Below are positions 54 through 11,735 of a DNA stretch of 17,104 bases, piece after piece. The DNA is taken from IMG/VR virus record IMGVR_UViG_2740892269_000010; one strand, 5' to 3'. Both the position numbers and the translations under genes were made by a program. Position 1 is the first letter of the stretch; each line of letters opens with the position of its first letter. The notes beneath the pieces are model-generated. The model saw only the letters and a list, made by a program, of their open reading frames with translations, did not search any database and was not told where the DNA came from. The DNA comes from a virus (taxonomy: Duplodnaviria > Heunggongvirae > Uroviricota > Caudoviricetes).

Positions 54-227
54 TTAAAAAAAGAACAAATGGTAGTGTCCGCTATTGCCAGTACACCTCA
101 GGGTATAAGGGGTTATGGCCACCGGACTACCAAACGGCTGCCAGCCCTCTTTCAGTTTATGTGTCAGCTTTTCCGCAAGATCTGACGGCGGCGCCGCCCT
201 GACAACATCATAGTGTTTAAATGCCAT
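54..227 (-). CDS. Hypothetical small prophage protein (about 57 aa from the internal ATG; the ORF extends to 242)
   Basis: Six-frame ORF 54..242 on the minus strand. The internal ATG at 227-225 is preceded by GGAAAG about 5 nt upstream (reverse complement of 233-238), a plausible Shine-Dalgarno. No motif recognised. Lies in the prophage late-transcription direction. Confidence 0.3.
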   Translation of the reverse strand: MAFKHYDVVRAAPPSDLAEKLTHKLKEGWQPFGSPVAITPYTLRCTGNSGHYHLFFF

Positions 228-487
228 GGTTCTTTCCACCATCTGAAAAATAATTCTTTAAAATACCTGACATGTAATACAGAAAAAACACAAAACCATA
301 CCTTAAATAAAAACCTGATTATCAAGCAGATATGCATGGATAAACTACAAGACGAGATATAAACCACCCTGCATTTAAATAAACAATAAACAACATCAGA
401 AAAATAATTCTGCTCTATGGTTTACATTCAAAAATATCATTTATACTTTTCAGAACATCACCAGCAAGGCATAAACAAGGAAACTAA

Positions 488-823
488 ATGAAGTGGATTG
501 TGATTGATACAGTTATCCAGCCATCATGCGGAATATCTTTTTCAGTCATATGGAGTAAAATAAAATTAATAATCTGGTATCAATCGGATGCTTTCTTACC
601 TCCTGAAAGTATATTTACACTGACTCACACAGGCATCATGCTCAATAACAAAGTGCTACCTGTAACCATTTACAACGTAGTACCATTCAATAAAACATTC
701 TGGAATTCAATCAAAAATAGCCAGGAATGCCCTACAAATACAGATAACGTATTGAATGAATGCTTTAATAACCGTTGCACTCTGCAAATATGTCCTTATG
801 GACTAAAACAACAAAGTCCATAA
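488..823 (+). CDS. Candidate AT-rich cargo (moron-like) ORF, 111 aa, unknown function
   Basis: ATG at 488 preceded by AAGGA (476-480) at 7-nt spacing. Upstream sigma70-like hexamers TTTACA (421-426) and TATACT (442-447). A 9-bp perfect hairpin at 858-879 lies 35 nt after the stop. Very AT-rich compared with flanking DNA. No recognisable domain; in an AT-rich region an ORF of this length could arise by chance. Confidence 0.3.
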
Positions 824-857
824 GGAGTTTACTCACATCTGACAAAATCAATATAAA

Positions 858-879
858 CAGCCCCTCCGGAGAGGGGCTG
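858..879 (-). terminator. Strong GC hairpin, probable rho-independent terminator for minus-strand (phage late-direction) transcripts
   Basis: Stem cagcccctc (858-866), loop cgga, stem gaggggctg (871-879). On the minus strand it is followed by a T-rich tract (complement of aaaatcaatataaa at 844-857). No T-tract on the plus side. Confidence 0.45.
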
Positions 880-1270
880 GAGAGTGGCGCTATGTGCCAT
901 TGCATGGTGCCGGGTGCCTCCCGGTGAATTCAGTACCAGCACCTGAATCCGCGATTATCCCATATACCTACTCGCTGATTGCCCCTCCGCACAGGGGGAT
1001 TCACCATGCCAGTTTCTTTTAACAAACTCCCCGCAAACCAGACAACAGTCAACCGCCTGAATTGTGAAGTATTTAAAAATTTCTCCCGCTAACTGATACC
1101 CGGCTAACAGTCTGGCGTTTTCTTTTTCAGCAACGGGAAAGCAACAACCACCACACCCGCCACCAGCACACCGTCAGCCAGCACTGACATTATCCGGCTG
1201 CTGCAATGCCATTCACAAAAACAGTAAGCAATCACTTTTTACCGTAACAGGTGATAATCCAGATATGTAT

Positions 1271-1624
1271 CTACCCCAGATGAGTAATCCGAAGTTCATC
1301 CATACCACAGGTCCTGGCTATTCTGTTGTACTCCTGAACAAGAGCAAATAATTCTGAATTAGCAACCATGAACTCATCGCAAACCCTCTGTATAGCATCA
1401 CTATTCAGAATAATAACGTCTCTTCCCGAAAGACGATCAGGAGTACAGAACAAAACTGTCAAACGGCTGAAGGCCTTTGCTCGTGCTGCATTGACTATAT
1501 CAATACGCTGCCTAAGGATGAAACACCCCGACGCCTCATCAATATTCACTCTACCCACACCATATGAATGATAAATATTTAATGCTGAAAAAACCATTAG
1601 ACCGTATAACAAACACTCAATCAA
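1271..1624 (-). CDS. Hypothetical ORF (117 aa, TTG-initiated in the ORF track) at the cargo position downstream of the tRNA
   Basis: Six-frame ORF only. The start codon at 1624-1622 is TTG; no clear RBS and no recognisable motif. Could equally be a gene remnant. Confidence 0.22.
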   Translation of the reverse strand: MIECLLYGLMVFSALNIYHSYGVGRVNIDEASGCFILRQRIDIVNAARAKAFSRLTVLFCTPDRLSGRDVIILNSDAIQRVCDEFMVANSELFALVQEYNRIARTCGMDELRITHLG

Positions 1625-1734
1625 TACTTAACAGAACTTTTATTTTTGACAAACATAAAATATTTTCAACAATATCCTGAGCCAGGTATATTTCAGTATA
1701 AGGCTCTGCCGGAAGGAATCTGGAAGAATGAATA

Positions 1735-1811
1735 TGGCGCGCTGTACTGGATTCGAACCAGTGACCGATTGCTTAGAAGGCAATTGNNNNNNNNNNNNNN
1801 NNNNNNNNNNN
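1735..1811 (-). tRNA. tRNA-Arg (anticodon UCU), 3' half visible, 5' part masked by N
   Basis: Reverse complement of 1735-1786 reads caattgccttctaagcaatcggtcactggttcgaatccagtacagcgcgcca. This gives an anticodon stem attgc/gcaat with loop cTTCTAa (anticodon TCT), a T-stem actgg/ccagt with loop TTCGAAT, a 7-nt acceptor 3' strand, discriminator G and an encoded CCA. The 5' end at about 1811 is extrapolated from a 77-nt length. Confidence 0.6.
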
Positions 1812-2077
1812 NNNNNNNNNNNNNNNNNNNNNNNNNNNNNNNNNNNNNNNNNNNNNNNNNNNNNNNNNNNNNNNNNNNNNNNNNNNNNNNNNNNNNNNNN
1901 NNNNNNNNNNNNNNNNNNNNNNNNNNNNNNNNNNNNNNNNNNNNNNNNNNNNNNNNNNNNNNNNNNNNNNNNNNNNNNNNNNNNNNNNNNNNNNNNNNNN
2001 NNNNNNNNNNNNNNNNNNNNNNNNNNNNNNNNNNNNNTGTAGAAACTCTTCTAACGTCAGGCATAAAACGCCCATAG

Positions 2078-2932
2078 TTATGACGAATTTACCACAGATT
2101 CCGGAAAAATCAACCTAGTTACCTTTTTTAACTGCCGCTCAGCCCATGCTTCTTCAATATCAAACCGAGTCACCAGCGCATCATAGAATTTCTTAACTGT
2201 TTTTTCCCATGACGCGCGTGTTATCTGGTTTGTCACCTCGCATATAGCATTAAATGCCTCCGTTGATGGTAGTCTTTCATAGCCACGACCACCACAACGC
2301 TGGCAGTCTCTGATAACAGGCATACCACGTTTTACCGACTCTTCACGATGAATGGCGACACCACGCCCACGGCAATCCTTACAGGCGGTGGAAACCTCAC
2401 CCTTTCCGCCACACTCCGGACAGGCAACTTTTACCACCTCCCTGACTTTTTTCCATTCTTCCCAGTAAGACGGATACACACCTTTCGTACACTTTGCCCA
2501 TACCGGCGGCTTACCATCCGGATACTGGACCTTGTTTGTAAAAACTACGCTTTCAATAAATTTTTCCCCATAGCAACAAGGGCACTGCTTTTTACTCGCT
2601 GCGCTGCGGGCATAATCCTCAAAAGCGTACGAAGCCATAATGCGCATCACTACCGGTTTTATTTCTGCCGGAAGTTTTCTCAACGCCGCCACACGATCGC
2701 ACCGACTGAGTGCATAATCTGCCAGTAATTCTGTTGCCCGCGCCCTGTCATTCATACTGATGCCCATTTTCCCCAGGAACGCAGAAAACCCCATCTCAGC
2801 CCGATTCTGTGTCATGCCCTGCGCGGCCATCACATCAGTGATACTCAGCGCATCTTTTGACGTTGAGGCCGATGCATCGGTCAGGCAAGGGGATTTTGGG
2901 GAGTAGTATTTCGGTAAATCTTCCAGTTTCAT
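2078..2932 (-). CDS. Putative lambdoid late-gene antiterminator (Q-like), 284 aa, with DnaJ-type CxxCxGxG zinc-finger repeats
   Basis: Position is diagnostic: immediately downstream of rusA with a 4-nt overlap (2929-2932) and immediately upstream of the tRNA island, as in lambdoid late-regulatory regions. The protein contains CPECGGKG, CKDCRGRG and CQRCGGRG repeats plus CPCCYGEK. The family assignment is from context, not a recognised alignment. Confidence 0.55.
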   Translation of the reverse strand: MKLEDLPKYYSPKSPCLTDASASTSKDALSITDVMAAQGMTQNRAEMGFSAFLGKMGISMNDRARATELLADYALSRCDRVAALRKLPAEIKPVVMRIMASYAFEDYARSAASKKQCPCCYGEKFIESVVFTNKVQYPDGKPPVWAKCTKGVYPSYWEEWKKVREVVKVACPECGGKGEVSTACKDCRGRGVAIHREESVKRGMPVIRDCQRCGGRGYERLPSTEAFNAICEVTNQITRASWEKTVKKFYDALVTRFDIEEAWAERQLKKVTRLIFPESVVNSS

Positions 2933-3303
2933 TTTTTGACCTGCTCTTCATGCATTATGGGGTAAATCTTCACCCCCAGACGTCCACCAGATACTGGCTG
3001 ACCACGAACGATATTGATTTCATCAAACTGCTCATCGTCCATTAACACTCCCGCATGTGTCAGTGCATCCAGTGGTGCTTTCAGGATATTGTCCAGGTCA
3101 CGACGGCGCTTATCCGGTGGCTCTGCAATAATCTTTATCGCCAGTCTTCCGGACAGGCTTAATTTCAGTCGCTGCTGACGGACAATAAGCGCCACATCCC
3201 GGCGATAACGCTCACCGGCTTTTGATACAAAATATGTGTTGTCACGACGTCGCCAGTAAGTATTCACCGTCGGCGGATAAGGTAAAATAAACTCATGGCG
3301 CAT
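2929..3303 (-). CDS. rusA: RusA-family Holliday junction resolvase (crossover junction endodeoxyribonuclease), 124 aa
   Basis: The protein carries DKRRRDLDN followed by LDAL and an acidic DDEQ cluster, matching the conserved RusA core (K-12 RusA has DRRRRDLDN as I recall it). Typical nin-region position upstream of Q. Confidence 0.85.
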   Translation of the reverse strand: MRHEFILPYPPTVNTYWRRRDNTYFVSKAGERYRRDVALIVRQQRLKLSLSGRLAIKIIAEPPDKRRRDLDNILKAPLDALTHAGVLMDDEQFDEINIVRGQPVSGGRLGVKIYPIMHEEQVKK

Positions 3304-3545
3304 CAGCGCAGCACCTCCTGCACCAGTTTTTCAAACTTTCCGACTCTGGTTTCCAGCTCTGCCACACAGTCCACCAGCTCATCTACTGCTTTCTGTGCGC
3401 GATGCTTCGCCTGCATCAGTTCCCGAAGCGCGGGTACCATATCTTTACGGATAGCGTCTTTTGTTATGCCCGTTTTTTCGAGTTGTTCAGCATGACGCAG
3501 CATTTCCTGCGCGTGTTTACGCAATTGTTCAGGGGTAAAAGTCAT
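3303..3545 (-). CDS. Hypothetical prophage nin-region protein (about 80 aa from the ATG at 3545; the ORF track extends to a TTG at 3560)
   Basis: ORF 3303..3560 on the minus strand. Its stop overlaps the rusA start by 1 nt (TGATG), suggesting translational coupling. Predicted helical, charged protein; no motif recognised. Confidence 0.5.
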   Translation of the reverse strand: MTFTPEQLRKHAQEMLRHAEQLEKTGITKDAIRKDMVPALRELMQAKHRAQKAVDELVDCVAELETRVGKFEKLVQEVLR

Positions 3546-3771
3546 TGTCTGGTTGTTCAAAAGAAACGCTCCATCTTACTGCTGTCAGTTCGTTTATTAC
3601 TGTATCTGCGCGGATTGCCGGGCTTCATGGGAGTGGAAAGCACCCGTGCACTTTCCTGGTCCACAGGCAGAAAATGTCCGTAGACTGGCCCCCTGAATCT
3701 CCAGACAACCAGTATCACTTAAATAAGTGATAGTCTTAATACTAGTTTTTAGACTAGTCATTGGAGTACAG

Positions 3772-4137
3772 ATGATTGATGTCTTAGGGCCGGAGAAACG
3801 CAGACGGCGTACCACACAGGAAAAGATCGCAATTGTGTCAACGCCACGATGTTTGACCGTTATTTGCCATTTTCATGCCCGCTAAATACTTTCGTTAGCC
3901 AGCCAGTTATTTCTCTGGCGTAAGCAATACCAGGAAGGAAGTCTTACTGCTGTCGCCGCCGGAGAACAGGTTGTTCCTGCCTCTGAACTTGCTGCCGCCA
4001 TGAAGCAGATTAAAGAACTCCAGCGCCTGCTCGGCAAGAAAACGATGGAAAATGAACTCCTCAAAGAAGCCGTTGAATATGGACGGGCAAAAAAGTGGAT
4101 AGCGCACGCGCCCTTATTGCCCGGGGATGGGGAGTAA
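3772..4137 (+). pseudogene. insC: IS2 insC (orfA) disrupted by a premature stop at 3883-3885 inside a 60-bp non-homologous block
   Basis: Same start context as copy 2 insC. From 3837 the sequence diverges for exactly 60 nt and carries an in-frame TAA. Homology and frame resume at 3897. Confidence 0.8.
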
Positions 4138-5000
4138 GCTTAGTCAGCCGTTGTCTCCGGGTGTCGCGTGCGCAGTTGCACGTCATTCTCAGACGAACCG
4201 ATGACTGGATGGATGGCCGCCGCAGTCGTCACACTGATGATACGGATGTGCTTCTCCGTATACACCATGTTATCGGAGAGCTGCCCACGTATGGTTATCG
4301 TCGGGTATGGGCGCTGCTTCGCAGACAGGCAGAACTTGATGGTATGCCTGCGATCAATGCCAAACGTGTTTACCGGATCATGCGCCAGAATGCGCTGTTG
4401 CTTGAGCGAAAACCTGCTGTACCGCCATCGAAACGGGCACATACAGGCAGAGTGGCCGTGAAAGAAAGCAATCAGCGATGGTGCTCTGACGGGTTCGAGT
4501 TCTGCTGTGATAACGGAGAGAGACTGCGTGTCACGTTCGCGCTGGACTGCTGTGATCGTGAGGCACTGCACTGGGCGGTGACTACCGGCGGCTTCAACAG
4601 TGAAACAGTACAGGACGTCATGCTGGGAGCGGTGGAACGCCGCTTCGGCAACGATCTTCCGTCGTCTCCAGTGGAGTGGCTGACGGATAATGGTTCATGC
4701 TACCGGGCTAATGAAACACGCCAGTTCGCCCGGATGTTGGGACTTGAACCGAAGAACACGGCGGTGCGGAGTCCGGAGAGTAACGGAATAGCAGAGAGCT
4801 TCGTGAAAACGATAAAGCGTGACTACATCAGTATCATGCCCAAACCAGACGGGTTAACGGCAGCAAAGAACCTTGCAGAGGCGTTCGAGCATTATAACGA
4901 ATGGCATCCGCATAGTGCGCTGGGTTATCGCTCGCCACGGGAATATCTGCGGCAGCGGGCTTGTAATGGGTTAAGTGATAACAGATGTCTGGAAATATAG
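4095..5000 (+). CDS. insD: IS2 transposase OrfB (InsD) reading frame, 301 aa, intact
   Basis: Identical 301-aa translation to copy 2. Normally expressed as an OrfAB fusion by -1 frameshift at the A6G motif (4089-4095); that cannot yield a normal fusion here because orfA is disrupted. Confidence 0.85.
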
Positions 5001-5011
5001 GGGCAAATCCA
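4971..5011 (+). repeat. IS2 right terminal inverted repeat (IRR) of copy 1
   Basis: 41-nt terminus ending in ...ggggcaaatcca. A perfect inverted match to 5248-5288. Confidence 0.9.
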
Positions 5012-5247
5012 NNNNNNNNNNNNNNNNNNNNNNNNNNNNNNNNNNNNNNNNNNNNNNNNNNNNNNNNNNNNNNNNNNNNNNNNNNNNNNNNNNNNNNNNN
5101 NNNNNNNNNNNNNNNNNNNNNNNNNNNNNNNNNNNNNNNNNNNNNNNNNNNNNNNNNNNNNNNNNNNNNNNNNNNNNNNNNNNNNNNNNNNNNNNNNNNN
5201 NNNNNNNNNNNNNNNNNNNNNNNNNNNNNNNNNNNNNNNNNNNNNNN

Positions 5248-5288
5248 TGGATTTGCCCCTATATTTCCAGACATCTGTTATCACTTAA
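5248..5288 (+). repeat. Right-end-type (IRR-like) terminus at the left end of IS2 copy 2
   Basis: tggatttgcccctatatttccagacatctgttatcacttaa is the exact reverse complement of the right ends at 4971-5011 and 6537-6577. From 5289 it continues as normal IS2 left-end interior (ataagtgatagtc...). Confidence 0.85.
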
Positions 5289-5337
5289 ATAAGTGATAGT
5301 CTTAATACTAGTTTTTAGACTAGTCATTGGAGTACAG

Positions 5338-5703
5338 ATGATTGATGTCTTAGGGCCGGAGAAACGCAGACGGCGTACCACACAGGAAAAGATCGCAATT
5401 GTTCAGCAGAGCTTTGAACCGGGGATGACGGTCTCCCTCGTTGCCCGGCAACATGGTGTAGCAGCCAGCCAGTTATTTCTCTGGCGTAAGCAATACCAGG
5501 AAGGAAGTCTTACTGCTGTCGCCGCCGGAGAACAGGTTGTTCCTGCCTCTGAACTTGCTGCCGCCATGAAGCAGATTAAAGAACTCCAGCGCCTGCTCGG
5601 CAAGAAAACGATGGAAAATGAACTCCTCAAAGAAGCCGTTGAATATGGACGGGCAAAAAAGTGGATAGCGCACGCGCCCTTATTGCCCGGGGATGGGGAG
5701 TAA
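5338..5703 (+). CDS. insC: IS2 OrfA (InsC), 121 aa, DNA-binding transposition protein
   Basis: ATG at 5338 ([26 protein letters not shown]...); the ORF track extends upstream to 5293. Ends at 5703, overlapping insD. Confidence 0.9.
5655..5661 (+). other. A6G slippery heptamer for programmed -1 frameshifting between insC and insD
   Basis: aaaaaag at the insC/insD overlap; the same motif is at 4089-4095 in copy 1. Frameshift-dependent OrfAB expression is established for IS2 and the IS3 family. Confidence 0.7.
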
Positions 5704-6566
5704 GCTTAGTCAGCCGTTGTCTCCGGGTGTCGCGTGCGCAGTTGCACGTCATTCTCAGACGAACCGATGACTGGATGGATGGCCGCCGCAGTCGTCACAC
5801 TGATGATACGGATGTGCTTCTCCGTATACACCATGTTATCGGAGAGCTGCCCACGTATGGTTATCGTCGGGTATGGGCGCTGCTTCGCAGACAGGCAGAA
5901 CTTGATGGTATGCCTGCGATCAATGCCAAACGTGTTTACCGGATCATGCGCCAGAATGCGCTGTTGCTTGAGCGAAAACCTGCTGTACCGCCATCGAAAC
6001 GGGCACATACAGGCAGAGTGGCCGTGAAAGAAAGCAATCAGCGATGGTGCTCTGACGGGTTCGAGTTCTGCTGTGATAACGGAGAGAGACTGCGTGTCAC
6101 GTTCGCGCTGGACTGCTGTGATCGTGAGGCACTGCACTGGGCGGTGACTACCGGCGGCTTCAACAGTGAAACAGTACAGGACGTCATGCTGGGAGCGGTG
6201 GAACGCCGCTTCGGCAACGATCTTCCGTCGTCTCCAGTGGAGTGGCTGACGGATAATGGTTCATGCTACCGGGCTAATGAAACACGCCAGTTCGCCCGGA
6301 TGTTGGGACTTGAACCGAAGAACACGGCGGTGCGGAGTCCGGAGAGTAACGGAATAGCAGAGAGCTTCGTGAAAACGATAAAGCGTGACTACATCAGTAT
6401 CATGCCCAAACCAGACGGGTTAACGGCAGCAAAGAACCTTGCAGAGGCGTTCGAGCATTATAACGAATGGCATCCGCATAGTGCGCTGGGTTATCGCTCG
6501 CCACGGGAATATCTGCGGCAGCGGGCTTGTAATGGGTTAAGTGATAACAGATGTCTGGAAATATAG
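5661..6566 (+). CDS. insD: IS2 transposase OrfB (InsD), 301 aa
   Basis: ORF 5661..6566, identical translation to the copy 1 frame. Frame is -1 relative to insC. Confidence 0.9.
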
Positions 6567-6577
6567 GGGCAAATCCA

Positions 6578-8084: not shown

Positions 8085-10448
8085 ATGAAGAAAAAAATTG
8101 AATCCTACCAGGGTGCTGCAGGTGGTTGGGGTGCTGTTAAATCCGTAGCGAATGCAGTACGTAAGCAGATGGATATACGCCATGATGTTATTGCCATGTT
8201 TGACATGAATAAGCCAGAGGGCTTTGACTGTCCGGGTTGTGCATGGCCAGATCCTAAGCACAGTGCGTCATTCGACATTTGTGAAAACGGCGCAAAAGCA
8301 ATCGCCTGGGAAGTCACGGATAAGCAGGTAAATGCCTCTTTCTTTGCTGAGAATACGGTTCAATCATTACTTACCTGGGGAGATCACGAGCTTGAGGCTG
8401 CGGGGCGTCTCACTCAGCCTTTGAAATATGATGCCGTCAGCGACTGTTACAAGCCATTAAGCTGGCAACAAGCTTTCGACGAAATTGGCGCACGCCTTCA
8501 AAGCTATAGTGATCCCAATCAGGTTGAATTCTATACTTCGGGCCGCACTTCCAATGAAGCTGCCTTTCTTTATCAGCTTTTTGCCCGTGAATACGGGAGC
8601 AATAACTTTCCCGACTGCTCCAACATGTGCCATGAACCGACAAGCGTGGGTTTGGCAGCGAGTATCGGTGTAGGTAAAGGGACCGTGTTGCTGGAAGACT
8701 TTGAGAAGTGCGATTTAGTCATTTGCATTGGGCATAACCCTGGTACAAACCACCCTCGCATGCTGACTTCGTTGCGCGCTTTAGTGAAACGGGGAGCGAA
8801 AATGATCGCCATCAATCCTCTACAGGAACGTGGCCTGGAGCGATTTACCGCACCGCAAAACCCGTTTGAAATGCTGACGAACTCTGAGACTCAGTTGGCC
8901 AGTGCCTACTACAACGTGCGCATTGGTGGCGATATGGCGTTGCTCAAGGGGATGATGCGCCTGTTAATTGAGCGCGATGATGCTGCAAGTGCCGCAGGTC
9001 GGCCCTCATTGCTTGATGACGAATTTATTCAAACGCATACCGTCGGCTTTGACGAGCTACGCCGTGACGTTCTCAATTCCGAGTGGAAAGATATCGAACG
9101 TATTTCTGGACTAAGTCAGACACAAATCGCCGAACTGGCTGACGCATATGCCGCTGCCGATCGCACCATTATCTGTTACGGAATGGGGATCACTCAGCAC
9201 GAACATGGTACCCAGAATGTACAGCAACTGGTCAATCTGCTGTTGATGAAAGGTAACATTGGCAAGCCTGGTGCGGGTATCTGCCCACTACGAGGTCACT
9301 CTAATGTACAGGGCGACCGAACCGTCGGTATCACCGAGAAACCGTCTGCAGAGTTTCTGGCTCGCCTGGGTGAGCGCTATGGCTTCACCCCACCTCATGC
9401 ACCTGGACATGCTGCAATTGCCAGCATGCAAGCAATATGCACGGGGCAGGCTCGAGCATTGATCTGCATGGGGGGCAACTTTGCACTGGCAATGCCAGAT
9501 CGGGAAGCGAGCGCTGTACCGTTAACGCAATTAGATTTGGCGGTACACGTAGCCACTAAGCTTAACCGCTCTCATCTGCTGACCGCACGGCATAGCTATA
9601 TTCTGCCGGTTCTGGGGCGTAGCGAGATTGACATGCAAAAAAGCGGTGCGCAGGCGGTAACCGTTGAGGATTCAATGTNNNNNNNNNNNNNNNNNNNNNN
9701 NNNNNNNNNNNNNNNNNNNNNNNNNNNNNNNNNNNNNNNNNNNNNNNNNNNNNNNNNNNNNNNNNNNNNNNNNNNNNNNNNNNNNNNNNNNNNNNNNNNN
9801 NNNNNNNNNNNNNNNNNNNNNNNNNNNNNNNNNNNNNNNNNNNNNNNNNNNNNNNNNNNNNNNNNNNNNNNNNNNNNNNNNNNNNNNNNNNNNNNNNNNN
9901 NNNNNNNNNNNNNNNNNNNNNNNNNNNNGTTACCAGAGTTCGCCGACTATAACCAGCGCATCCGACATCCTGGAGGTTTTCACCTGATAAATGCAGCTGC
10001 TGAAAGGCGCTGGATGACGCCGTCAGGTAAGGCTAATTTCATTACCAGCAAAGGGCTGTTAGAAGATCCCTCTTCAGCGTTTAACAGTAAGCTGGTCATG
10101 GCGACAGTACGTAGCCACGATCAGTACAACACGACGATTTATGGTATGGATGATCGCTATCGAGGGGTATTCGGTCAACGAGATGTGGTCTTTATGAGTG
10201 CTAAACAAGCTAAAATTTGCCGTGTAAAAAACGGCGAAAGAGTTAATCTTATTGCGCTTACGCCAGACGGTAAGCGCAGCTCACGCCGCATGGATAGATT
10301 AAAAGTGGTCATTTACCCTATGGCTGACCGCTCACTGGTGACCTATTTTCCAGAATCGAATCACATGCTAACTCTTGATAACCACGATCCATTAAGTGGC
10401 ATTCCTGGTTATAAAAGTATTCCGGTTGAATTAGAACCATCAAATTAA
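8085..10448 (+). CDS. ydeP: YdeP, molybdopterin oxidoreductase family (formate dehydrogenase-like) acid-resistance protein
   Basis: 787-codon ORF; the middle is N-masked (9679-9928) but the frame is preserved. N-terminal Cys cluster CPGCAW...C. AGGA RBS 7 nt before the ATG at 8085; the in-frame ATG at 8169 (MDIRH...) would give the 759-aa form I recall for K-12. Confidence 0.9.
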
Positions 10449-10967: not shown

Positions 10968-11735
10968 ATGTCGCTCGTTTGTTCTGTTATATTTATTCAT
11001 CATGCCTTCAACGCTAACATTTTAGATAAAGATTACGCCTTCTCTGACGGCGAGATCCTGATGGTAGATAACGCTGTTCGTACGCATTTTGAACCTTATG
11101 AGCGGCATTTTAAAGAGATCGGATTTACTGAAAATACCATTAAAAAATATCTACAATGCACTAACATNNNNNNNNNNNNNNNNNNNNNNNNNNNNNNNNN
11201 NNNNNNNNNNNNNNNNNNNNNNNNNNNNNNNNNNNNNNNNNNNNNNNNNNNNNNNNNNNNNNNNNNNNNNNNNNNNNNNNNNNNNNNNNNNNNNNNNNNN
11301 NNNNNNNNNNNNNNNNNNNNNNNNNNNNNNNNNNNNNNNNNNNNNNNNNNNNNNNNNNNNNNNNNNNNNNNNNNNNNNNNNNNNNNNNNNNNNNNNNNNN
11401 NNNNNNNNNNNNNNNNNNNNCCATGGAAGCTGAAAGATATTTGTGACTGCCTGTACATCAGTGAAAGCCTGTTGAAGAAAAAACTAAAGCAAGAGCAAAC
11501 GACATTCTCACAGATTCTATTAGATGCCAGAATGCAGCACGCAAAAAATTTGATACGCGTAGAAGGTTCAGTCAATAAAATTGCCGAACAATGTGGTTAT
11601 GCCAGTACATCTTATTTTATTTATGCGTTCCGCAAACATTTCGGCAACAGTCCGAAGAGAGTTTCTAAGGAGTACCGTTGTCAAAGTCACATGGGTATGA
11701 ATACGGGCAACACGATGAGTGCTTTAGCTATTTGA
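10968..11735 (+). CDS. ydeO: YdeO, AraC-family acid-resistance transcriptional activator
   Basis: RBS aaggag at 10957-10962. N-terminus MSLVCSVIFIHHAFNANILDKDYAF and a C-terminal AraC HTH (KIAEQCGYASTSYFIYAFRKHFGNSPKRV). The middle is N-masked (11168-11420). Confidence 0.9.
   Translation: MSLVCSVIFIHHAFNANILDKDYAFSDGEILMVDNAVRTHFEPYERHFKEIGFTENTIKKYLQCTNXXXXXXXXXXXXXXXXXXXXXXXXXXXXXXXXXXXXXXXXXXXXXXXXXXXXXXXXXXXXXXXXXXXXXXXXXXXXXXXXXXXXXPWKLKDICDCLYISESLLKKKLKQEQTTFSQILLDARMQHAKNLIRVEGSVNKIAEQCGYASTSYFIYAFRKHFGNSPKRVSKEYRCQSHMGMNTGNTMSALAI

Follow-up and report, generated by a model that had tools for sequence, protein, structure and literature searches.

An order of genes in which the antiterminator gene Q, the late promoter pR', transfer RNA (tRNA) genes, cargo genes and lysis genes follow one another is already known from Shiga toxin (Stx)-converting and other lambdoid phages. 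In Stx phages of the 933W type, the tRNA genes located after Q and pR' are named ileZ, argN and argO. Three tRNAs were reported around stx2a (PMC7946995). In this study, positions 1271-2077 of the virus record IMGVR_UViG_2740892269_000010 (Caudoviricetes) were analyzed computationally, and the whole stretch of 17,104 nucleotides (nt) is called the window. The span shows the known order and is not a new kind of system. It quite probably represents the beginning of a late operon that belongs to a lambda-like prophage remnant, with tRNAs and a cargo cassette (moron) that includes a small gene, designated X. Two relatives, one a prophage of E. coli (L001) and the other phage mEp460_ev081 (L002), are each approximately 98% identical to window positions 900-3306. 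No end-to-end match to the window was found among complete E. coli genomes. Literature searches on WP_001017777 and on the tRNA gene names found nothing.

Gene X and its probable start codon

Gene X is read from the minus strand, and its frame remains open upstream of the start codon.

1271-1549, minus strand: gene X, GTG start, 92 amino acids (aa), family phrog_2873
1550-1624, minus strand: in-frame upstream extension of X (TTG at 1624, ATG at 1597), probably not translated

The product is an acidic protein of 92 aa (10.4 kDa, isoelectric point 5.7). Its frame was intact in all 77 of 77 close relatives, among which 3.6% of the sites in the coding sequence (CDS) were variable, compared with 9.7% upstream and 7.1% downstream. 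Six of the ten variable CDS sites were at third codon positions, and the changes comprised six synonymous and five non-synonymous ones. When X was compared with homologues approximately 60% identical at the protein level, the ratio of non-synonymous to synonymous substitution rates (dN/dS) was 0.22-0.32, with the synonymous sites near saturation. Moreover, across the seven homologues examined, every frame other than the sense frame of X was interrupted in at least one. These comparisons indicate that X is a genuine protein-coding gene under purifying selection.

The 279-bp CDS was detected in 1314 of 5426 complete E. coli genomes, with at least 99% identity in 1172 of them, and the carriers include CFT073 (NC_004431.1, 1342739-1343017) and an O55:H7 strain. 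Although 1314 genomes carry the DNA, the listed window-type hits have no RefSeq feature; together with a weak ribosome-binding site and the lack of a Pfam or NCBIfam family, this would fit a chance open frame in the AT-rich spacer between the tRNAs and the DUF3927 gene. Such a chance frame is very unlikely in view of the intact frame, the lower variability of the CDS relative to its flanks and the dN/dS values. In addition, the frame persists in five gene contexts at identities as low as 33%, sister branches of X are annotated as hypothetical proteins of 91-92 aa, and the fold is predicted with confidence, as described below.

The initial annotation had described the frame as a 117-aa product of unknown function, starting with TTG and spanning 1271-1624. 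The frame exists on the minus strand, but the start and the length did not hold, as X probably starts at GTG 1549 and encodes 92 aa. All homologues of 91-95 aa start where the window protein reads VNIDE, and this length is shared by all homologues below 45% identity and by the annotated sister branches. The upstream extension is absent from the more distant homologues, is more variable than the CDS and has an indel in one close haplotype; in L003 it lies in another frame, with a stop six codons ahead of the GTG. A good Shine-Dalgarno sequence (AAGGGA) precedes the 95-aa Citrobacter homologue. A product of 117 aa (TTG 1624) or 108 aa (ATG 1597) was considered against this evidence, since phrog_2873 spans 108 positions and matches residues 10-117 of the long form (E 3.8e-70), many metagenome gene calls are 108-118 aa long, and one homologue approximately 55% identical (P0005) retains the extension in frame. 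The 92-aa form matches the same family along its whole length (residues 1-92, profile positions 17-108, E 5.6e-58), and we regard the longer products as quite improbable.

Two other elements overlapping X were rejected. A plus-strand open reading frame (ORF) of 67 aa at 1368-1571 belongs to no family and is broken in the homologues. A terminator-like hairpin at 1435-1417 has three G-C pairs, lies inside the coding frame and is probably a chance structure.

Q antiterminator and putative late promoter

The elements that would control the transcription of X lie upstream of it on the same strand.

2078-2932, minus strand: Q antiterminator gene (PF03589 Antiterm, E 7e-55; phrog_127, E 1e-110)
2113-2074, minus strand: candidate late promoter of the lambda pR' type, located by alignment with lambda

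The Q protein is 31% identical to lambda Q (BLASTP, E 4e-41) and carries a zinc-ribbon-rich insertion of approximately 70 residues, rich in CxxC motifs, which also matches DnaJ zinc-finger models. It is 11 codons longer than Q of L001, in which eight extra bases introduce a stop codon; the longer frame of the window results from the absence of these 8 bp, present in relatives, at 2078-2113. The TAA stop codon of Q (2080-2078) and the pause element of the late promoter partly coincide.

The promoter comprises a -35 element (TTGATT, 2113-2108), a 16-nt spacer and an extended -10 element (TGgTAAATT) ending at 2086. Beyond the -10 element follow CGTCAT, the -10-like pause element AACTAT (2079-2074) and GGG. 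This arrangement aligns with the lambda sequence TTGACT...GGGTAAATT...AACGATGGG located just past the end of lambda Q, in which the counterpart of the part from the -10 element to the pause is GGGTAAATT TGACTC AACGAT GGG. The aligned lambda stretch is pR' with its sigma-70-dependent pause element. By this alignment, a promoter and a promoter-proximal pause element of the lambda type directly follow Q. As Q is at 2078-2932 and the pR'-like promoter at 2113-2074, the tRNAs and the X frame would lie downstream of a pR'/tR'-type switch.

tRNA genes and the masked stretch

Between the promoter and X, part of one tRNA gene can be read, and the remainder is masked in the window.

1787-2037, minus strand: masked stretch, which by homology with relatives would hold the tR' terminator, a promoter-like site, one CAU tRNA, a spacer of approximately 100 nt and the 5' 25 nt of the tRNA-Arg
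1735-1786, minus strand: 3' 52 nt of tRNA-Arg(UCU), identical to L001 4836-4887

The tRNA-Arg(UCU) that the initial annotation had read at 1735-1786 was confirmed. The visible part contains the CCA end, the T arm, the variable loop and the anticodon arm with UCU, while the 5' 25 nt are masked, and it is identical to the 3' end of the complete 77-nt tRNA-Arg(tct) of L001 and L002. The complete gene of L001 scored 68 bits (Rfam). ARAGORN called no tRNA in the window as given, because 1787-2037 consists of N; when the mask was filled with the L001 sequence, it called a tRNA-Arg(tct) and a tRNA(cat).

In L001, Q is followed on the late strand by an intrinsic terminator formed by a G+C-rich hairpin and a T run (5152-5133), a promoter-like TTGCGA-17-TATTAT (5127-5099), a 76-nt tRNA with the CAT anticodon (5089-5014), a spacer of approximately 100 nt and the tRNA-Arg (4912-4836). 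The pair of tRNA(cat) and tRNA-Arg(tct) preceded X in 73 of 82 closely related viral-contig loci, and a third tRNA, Arg(tcg), was found in only 2 of the 82, giving the trio CAT, TCG and TCT. The stretch between the anchors that border the mask measured 261-270 nt in 58 relatives, compared with 251 nt in the window. A small deletion thus appears to set the masked version apart from its relatives, and its exact content is not readable. According to the earlier reading, the mask had room for the rest of the tRNA-Arg and approximately two more tRNAs. Homology bears out the former; two more tRNAs are unlikely because 73 of 82 relatives carry just two in all and the equivalent stretch differs in length. 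Most likely, the mask holds one further tRNA and a terminator.

The tRNA with the CAU anticodon is annotated as Ile by NCBI and as Met by ARAGORN. Its Ile identity depends on lysidine modification. tRNA-Arg(UCU) reads AGA and AGG, and the CAU tRNA, if it is Ile, reads AUA; these codons are rare in E. coli. In X, AGA or AGG accounts for 5 of 10 Arg codons and AUA for 3 of 9 Ile codons, that is, 8 of 92 codons in all. The density of the three codons was 8.7 per 100 codons in X, compared with 0.8-2.3 per 100 in the window's chromosomal genes, and X of the window had the highest density among the X homologues. Since 8 of the 92 codons are AGA, AGG or AUA, the upstream tRNA pair should aid the translation of X, provided that the CAU tRNA is Ile. 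X and the two tRNAs therefore offer a tractable small case for asking whether phage tRNAs serve neighboring cargo.

Probable cargo cassette that includes X

X is followed on the same strand by a second small gene, a small RNA (sRNA) and a terminator.

1104-1235, minus strand: DUF3927/TciB-like gene for a small hydrophobic protein (PF13064, E 1.7e-27; phrog_1470, E 7.8e-13)
849-1038, minus strand: prophage sRNA of the STnc100 family (RF02076, 132.4 bits against a gathering score of 47, E 4e-30)
879-858, minus strand: strong intrinsic terminator of nine pairs, seven of them G-C, closing the cassette at the 3' end of the sRNA

The DUF3927 gene lies 35 nt downstream of X and is annotated in L001. 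The STnc100 match begins 66 nt past the DUF3927 stop codon; this prophage sRNA is already known and could be derived here from the 3' end of the X-DUF3927 transcript. At the equivalent position of L001, RefSeq lists a pseudogene on the opposite strand, described as a partial hypothetical protein. The G+C content of the cassette was 0.44, compared with 0.49 in the neighboring phage genes. The only candidates for promoters of its own were matches to 9 of 12 consensus positions, which were no commoner than in shuffled sequences. X, DUF3927, STnc100 and the terminator together show the pattern of a mobile cargo cassette.

The following mode of expression would be consistent with this arrangement. 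After the pause element, a short leader would end at an intrinsic terminator, which is seen in the relatives and masked in the window. RNA polymerase modified by Q would pass the terminators, transcribe the cassette and continue into the lysis genes. When Q is lacking, the terminator at 879-858 would halt any transcript initiated at the weak promoter-like sites ahead of the tRNAs or of X.

Distribution and gene contexts of X

X homologues occupy the same slot between Q and holin and point in the late direction, and the Q proteins ahead of them belong to three families (PF03589, PF06323 and PF06530). The gene orders of representative loci were as follows.

L001 and L095: Q, tRNA-Ile, tRNA-Arg, an unannotated gap, DUF3927 and, farther downstream on that strand, holin and lysozyme
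L012 and L013: PF03589 Q, methyltransferase, AraC-type gene, X, TerB-like gene, DUF3927, holin
L003: PF06323 Q and, farther on, AraC-type gene, X
L005 (Citrobacter): PF06530 Q and, farther on, tRNA-Thr, X, TerB-like gene, DUF3927, holins
L098: Q, methyltransferase, X, holin
L097 (Shiga toxin-producing E. coli strain): tRNA-Ile, tRNA-Arg, tolA-like gene, AraC-type gene, X, esterase, holin

The order of Q, tRNA, cargo and lysis genes, previously likened to that of Stx phages, was accordingly recovered in the window and in L001, L095 and L097. The tRNAs of L097 are homologous to those of the window, and stx of Stx phages is likewise bordered by the esterase and holin genes. In L012, X is directly followed by an intrinsic terminator. 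A small neighborhood of AraC-type gene, X, TerB-like gene and DUF3927 ahead of holin recurs in L012 and L013.

Among 50,697 phage records, a close form of X was found by tblastn in one, mEp460_ev081. An exhaustive search of 1.84 billion representative proteins gave 20 clusters matching X, and a profile search gave 31 clusters at 90% identity. All matches carrying a source name were hypothetical proteins of Escherichia, Shigella, Citrobacter or Salmonella. A 313-aa repeat protein (P0019) was dropped as a spurious match. Among the matches listed, two of the four divergent hits to X (74-76% identity) carry a hypothetical protein. Judging from the listed window-type hits, X is a gene under purifying selection that escapes any pangenome, proteome or transcriptome analysis built on RefSeq features.

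X homologues are also found near genes for adhesins and regulators. In five O157-like lambdoid prophages (L003, L004, L012, L013 and L097), the homologue lies 90-130 nt downstream of a 241-aa AraC-type (HTH_18) gene. In E. coli plasmid contigs (L009-L011, 6001-6276), a homologue approximately 34% identical lies approximately 1.2 kb from a PapB-type fimbrial operon, and another (L014, 6001-6285) follows a type IV pilus operon, 86 nt past its last gene. On these grounds, X might be a small modulator of AraC-family regulators that affects adhesin or virulence gene expression through them. This role is unlikely, as the prophage part of the window has no AraC-type gene, none stands beside X in L005 and L098, and no sequence match to any regulator family was found for X. 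Moreover, the plasmid copy by the fimbrial operon has a tRNA-Thr(tgt) 596 nt upstream, and a tRNA-Thr also precedes X in the Citrobacter prophage L005; this hints at a transplanted piece of phage DNA rather than at functional linkage.

Family, fold and possible function of X

The profile searches proposed in the initial annotation assigned X to phrog_2873, a family of unknown function, and the ORF was conserved in 77 of 77 relatives. All 12 aligned homologues of X matched the same family, and neither X nor any of the 12 matched Pfam, NCBIfam or PADLOC. A sequence profile search of the PDB gave only a chance match (E 0.42). The earlier statement that nothing Stx-like is present at this locus therefore agrees with the Pfam, NCBIfam, PADLOC and PDB sequence searches.

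An AlphaFold model of X built from the 12-sequence alignment reached a pLDDT of 91.2, and the single-sequence run reached 43. In the model, a helix (residues 3-34), a beta-hairpin (39-46) and a second helix (50-81) are followed by a less certain C-terminal tail. X is thus predicted to form a two-helix coiled-coil hairpin joined by a beta-hairpin. When the model was compared with the PDB using Foldseek, prefoldin beta subunits ranked first (TM approximately 0.7), with a best E value of 0.038 and none reaching 0.001. In the viral structure library BFVD, the model matched uncharacterised proteins only (E > 0.1). The likeness to prefoldin appears to be one of shape only, as thousands of unrelated helical hairpins score alike.

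No signal, membrane or N-terminal hydrophobic segment and no catalytic, toxin or defence family was found in the sequence and model of X. Because catalytic, secretion and membrane features are lacking, it is weakly suggested that X is an oligomeric protein-binding accessory factor rather than an enzyme or toxin. The slot of X, between the tRNAs and the lysis genes, is where stx sits and where phages put toxins and other host-modifying cargo, and a toxin-like or secreted virulence protein analogous to Stx would suit this position. We nevertheless consider such a product extremely unlikely, as X is an acidic protein of approximately 10 kDa that matches no toxin or defence family, its model is all helix with one hairpin and no N-terminal hydrophobic segment, and no gene for a partner B subunit is present.

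A broader proposal is that phrog_2873 and phrog_4827 constitute a new family of small coiled-coil, prefoldin-shaped accessory proteins on enterobacterial prophages and plasmids. Its members would bind a host or phage protein, such as an adhesin or stress regulator or a defence component, and the upstream rare-codon tRNAs would act as a gate on translation of the window-type member. We hold this proposal to be improbable. If it is true, efficient production of window-type X would require expression of the tRNAs that the phage itself encodes.

State of the prophage

The window contains four N runs (1787-2037, 5012-5247, 9679-9928 and 11168-11420). Phage DNA stops approximately 0.4 kb upstream of rusA, where the insertion sequence IS2 cuts the prophage.

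Approximately 3680-5011: IS2 copy 1, with orfA broken
Approximately 5247-6577: IS2 copy 2, starting 1566 bp from the start of copy 1

The gap of approximately 235 nt between the two IS2 copies corresponds exactly to the mask at 5012-5247. An 85-aa ORF at 3303-3560 lies beside rusA, just before the IS2 cut. Past IS2, the genes are chromosomal, with the domain content of ydeQ, ydeP, ydeO, ydeN, ydeM and yddA, and this stretch has a FimH-like gene at one end and an ABC transporter gene at the other.

The initial annotation had stated that genes at this locus are expressed on prophage induction. The early and immunity region is not adjacent to Q in the window. For this copy, induction-dependent expression appears doubtful, because the IS2 truncation leaves no immunity or early region feeding Q. 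Expression from this copy may need a Q of the same type supplied by another prophage.

At the other end of the phage part, a DUF1737 ORF (54-242, minus strand; E 1.5e-15) is a truncated pseudogene by annotation in relatives, and this status may be a further sign of decay in the late region. A full-length IraM homologue (488-823, plus strand; NF007393, E 4.7e-48; phrog_4407) also lies within the prophage late region. The gene is convergent with the late strand and AT-rich (G+C 0.35). IraM is an anti-adaptor that protects RpoS.

Several observations weigh against reading the span as the start of a late operon with tRNAs and X as cargo. The prophage is truncated by IS2, and Q is perhaps not expressed from this copy. 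The tRNA(CAU), tR' and the promoter-like site are unseen in the window, and the mask falls 10-19 nt short of the equivalent stretch in every relative measured. Promoter-like sites near the tRNAs and X are no commoner than in shuffled sequence. Among the matches listed, a RefSeq feature lies under X in 0 of 36 hits of at least 99% identity. GTG 1549 has only a weak ribosome-binding site, and the codon match with the tRNAs is based on just eight codons.

Comparison with known systems

The switch resembles that of lambda Q, pR' and tR' in that the -35 element, the extended -10 element (TAAATT) and the pause AAC(G/T)ATGGG align, and in the relatives a terminator follows a short leader. The leader of lambda measures roughly 194 nt to the terminator. 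The locus differs from lambda in a leader of approximately 60-70 nt to the terminator in the relatives, in the CxxC insertion of approximately 70 residues in Q, and in the Q frame of the window, which enters the promoter.

As in Stx-converting lambdoid phages, the tRNAs lie on the late strand between the late promoter and terminator and the cargo and lysis genes, with the anticodons CAU and UCU and, in two relatives, the full trio CAU, UCG and UCU. Unlike in those phages, the relatives have two tRNAs rather than three, Q belongs to the lambda family (PF03589) and not to the 933W type, stx is absent, and the window holds a remnant cut by IS2.

X differs from the prefoldin beta subunits of archaea and eukaryotes in that the structural matches have E values of at least 0.04 and identities of 8-16%, there is no sequence family match, and no gene for an alpha-subunit partner is present.

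The cassette also agrees with lambdoid morons, which are independent units of cargo lodged among conserved phage genes. Otherwise related late regions differ in whether they carry X, DUF3927 and STnc100, X stands behind three Q families, and the cassette has its own strong terminator; the candidates for a promoter of its own were not convincing. The new element at this locus is X as an uncharacterised late-region cargo gene, which is a sound but ordinary finding that does not overturn current understanding. Its value is modest and lies in a widely carried gene that is unannotated in the listed hits, has a confidently predicted fold and is linked through rare codons to the adjoining tRNAs.

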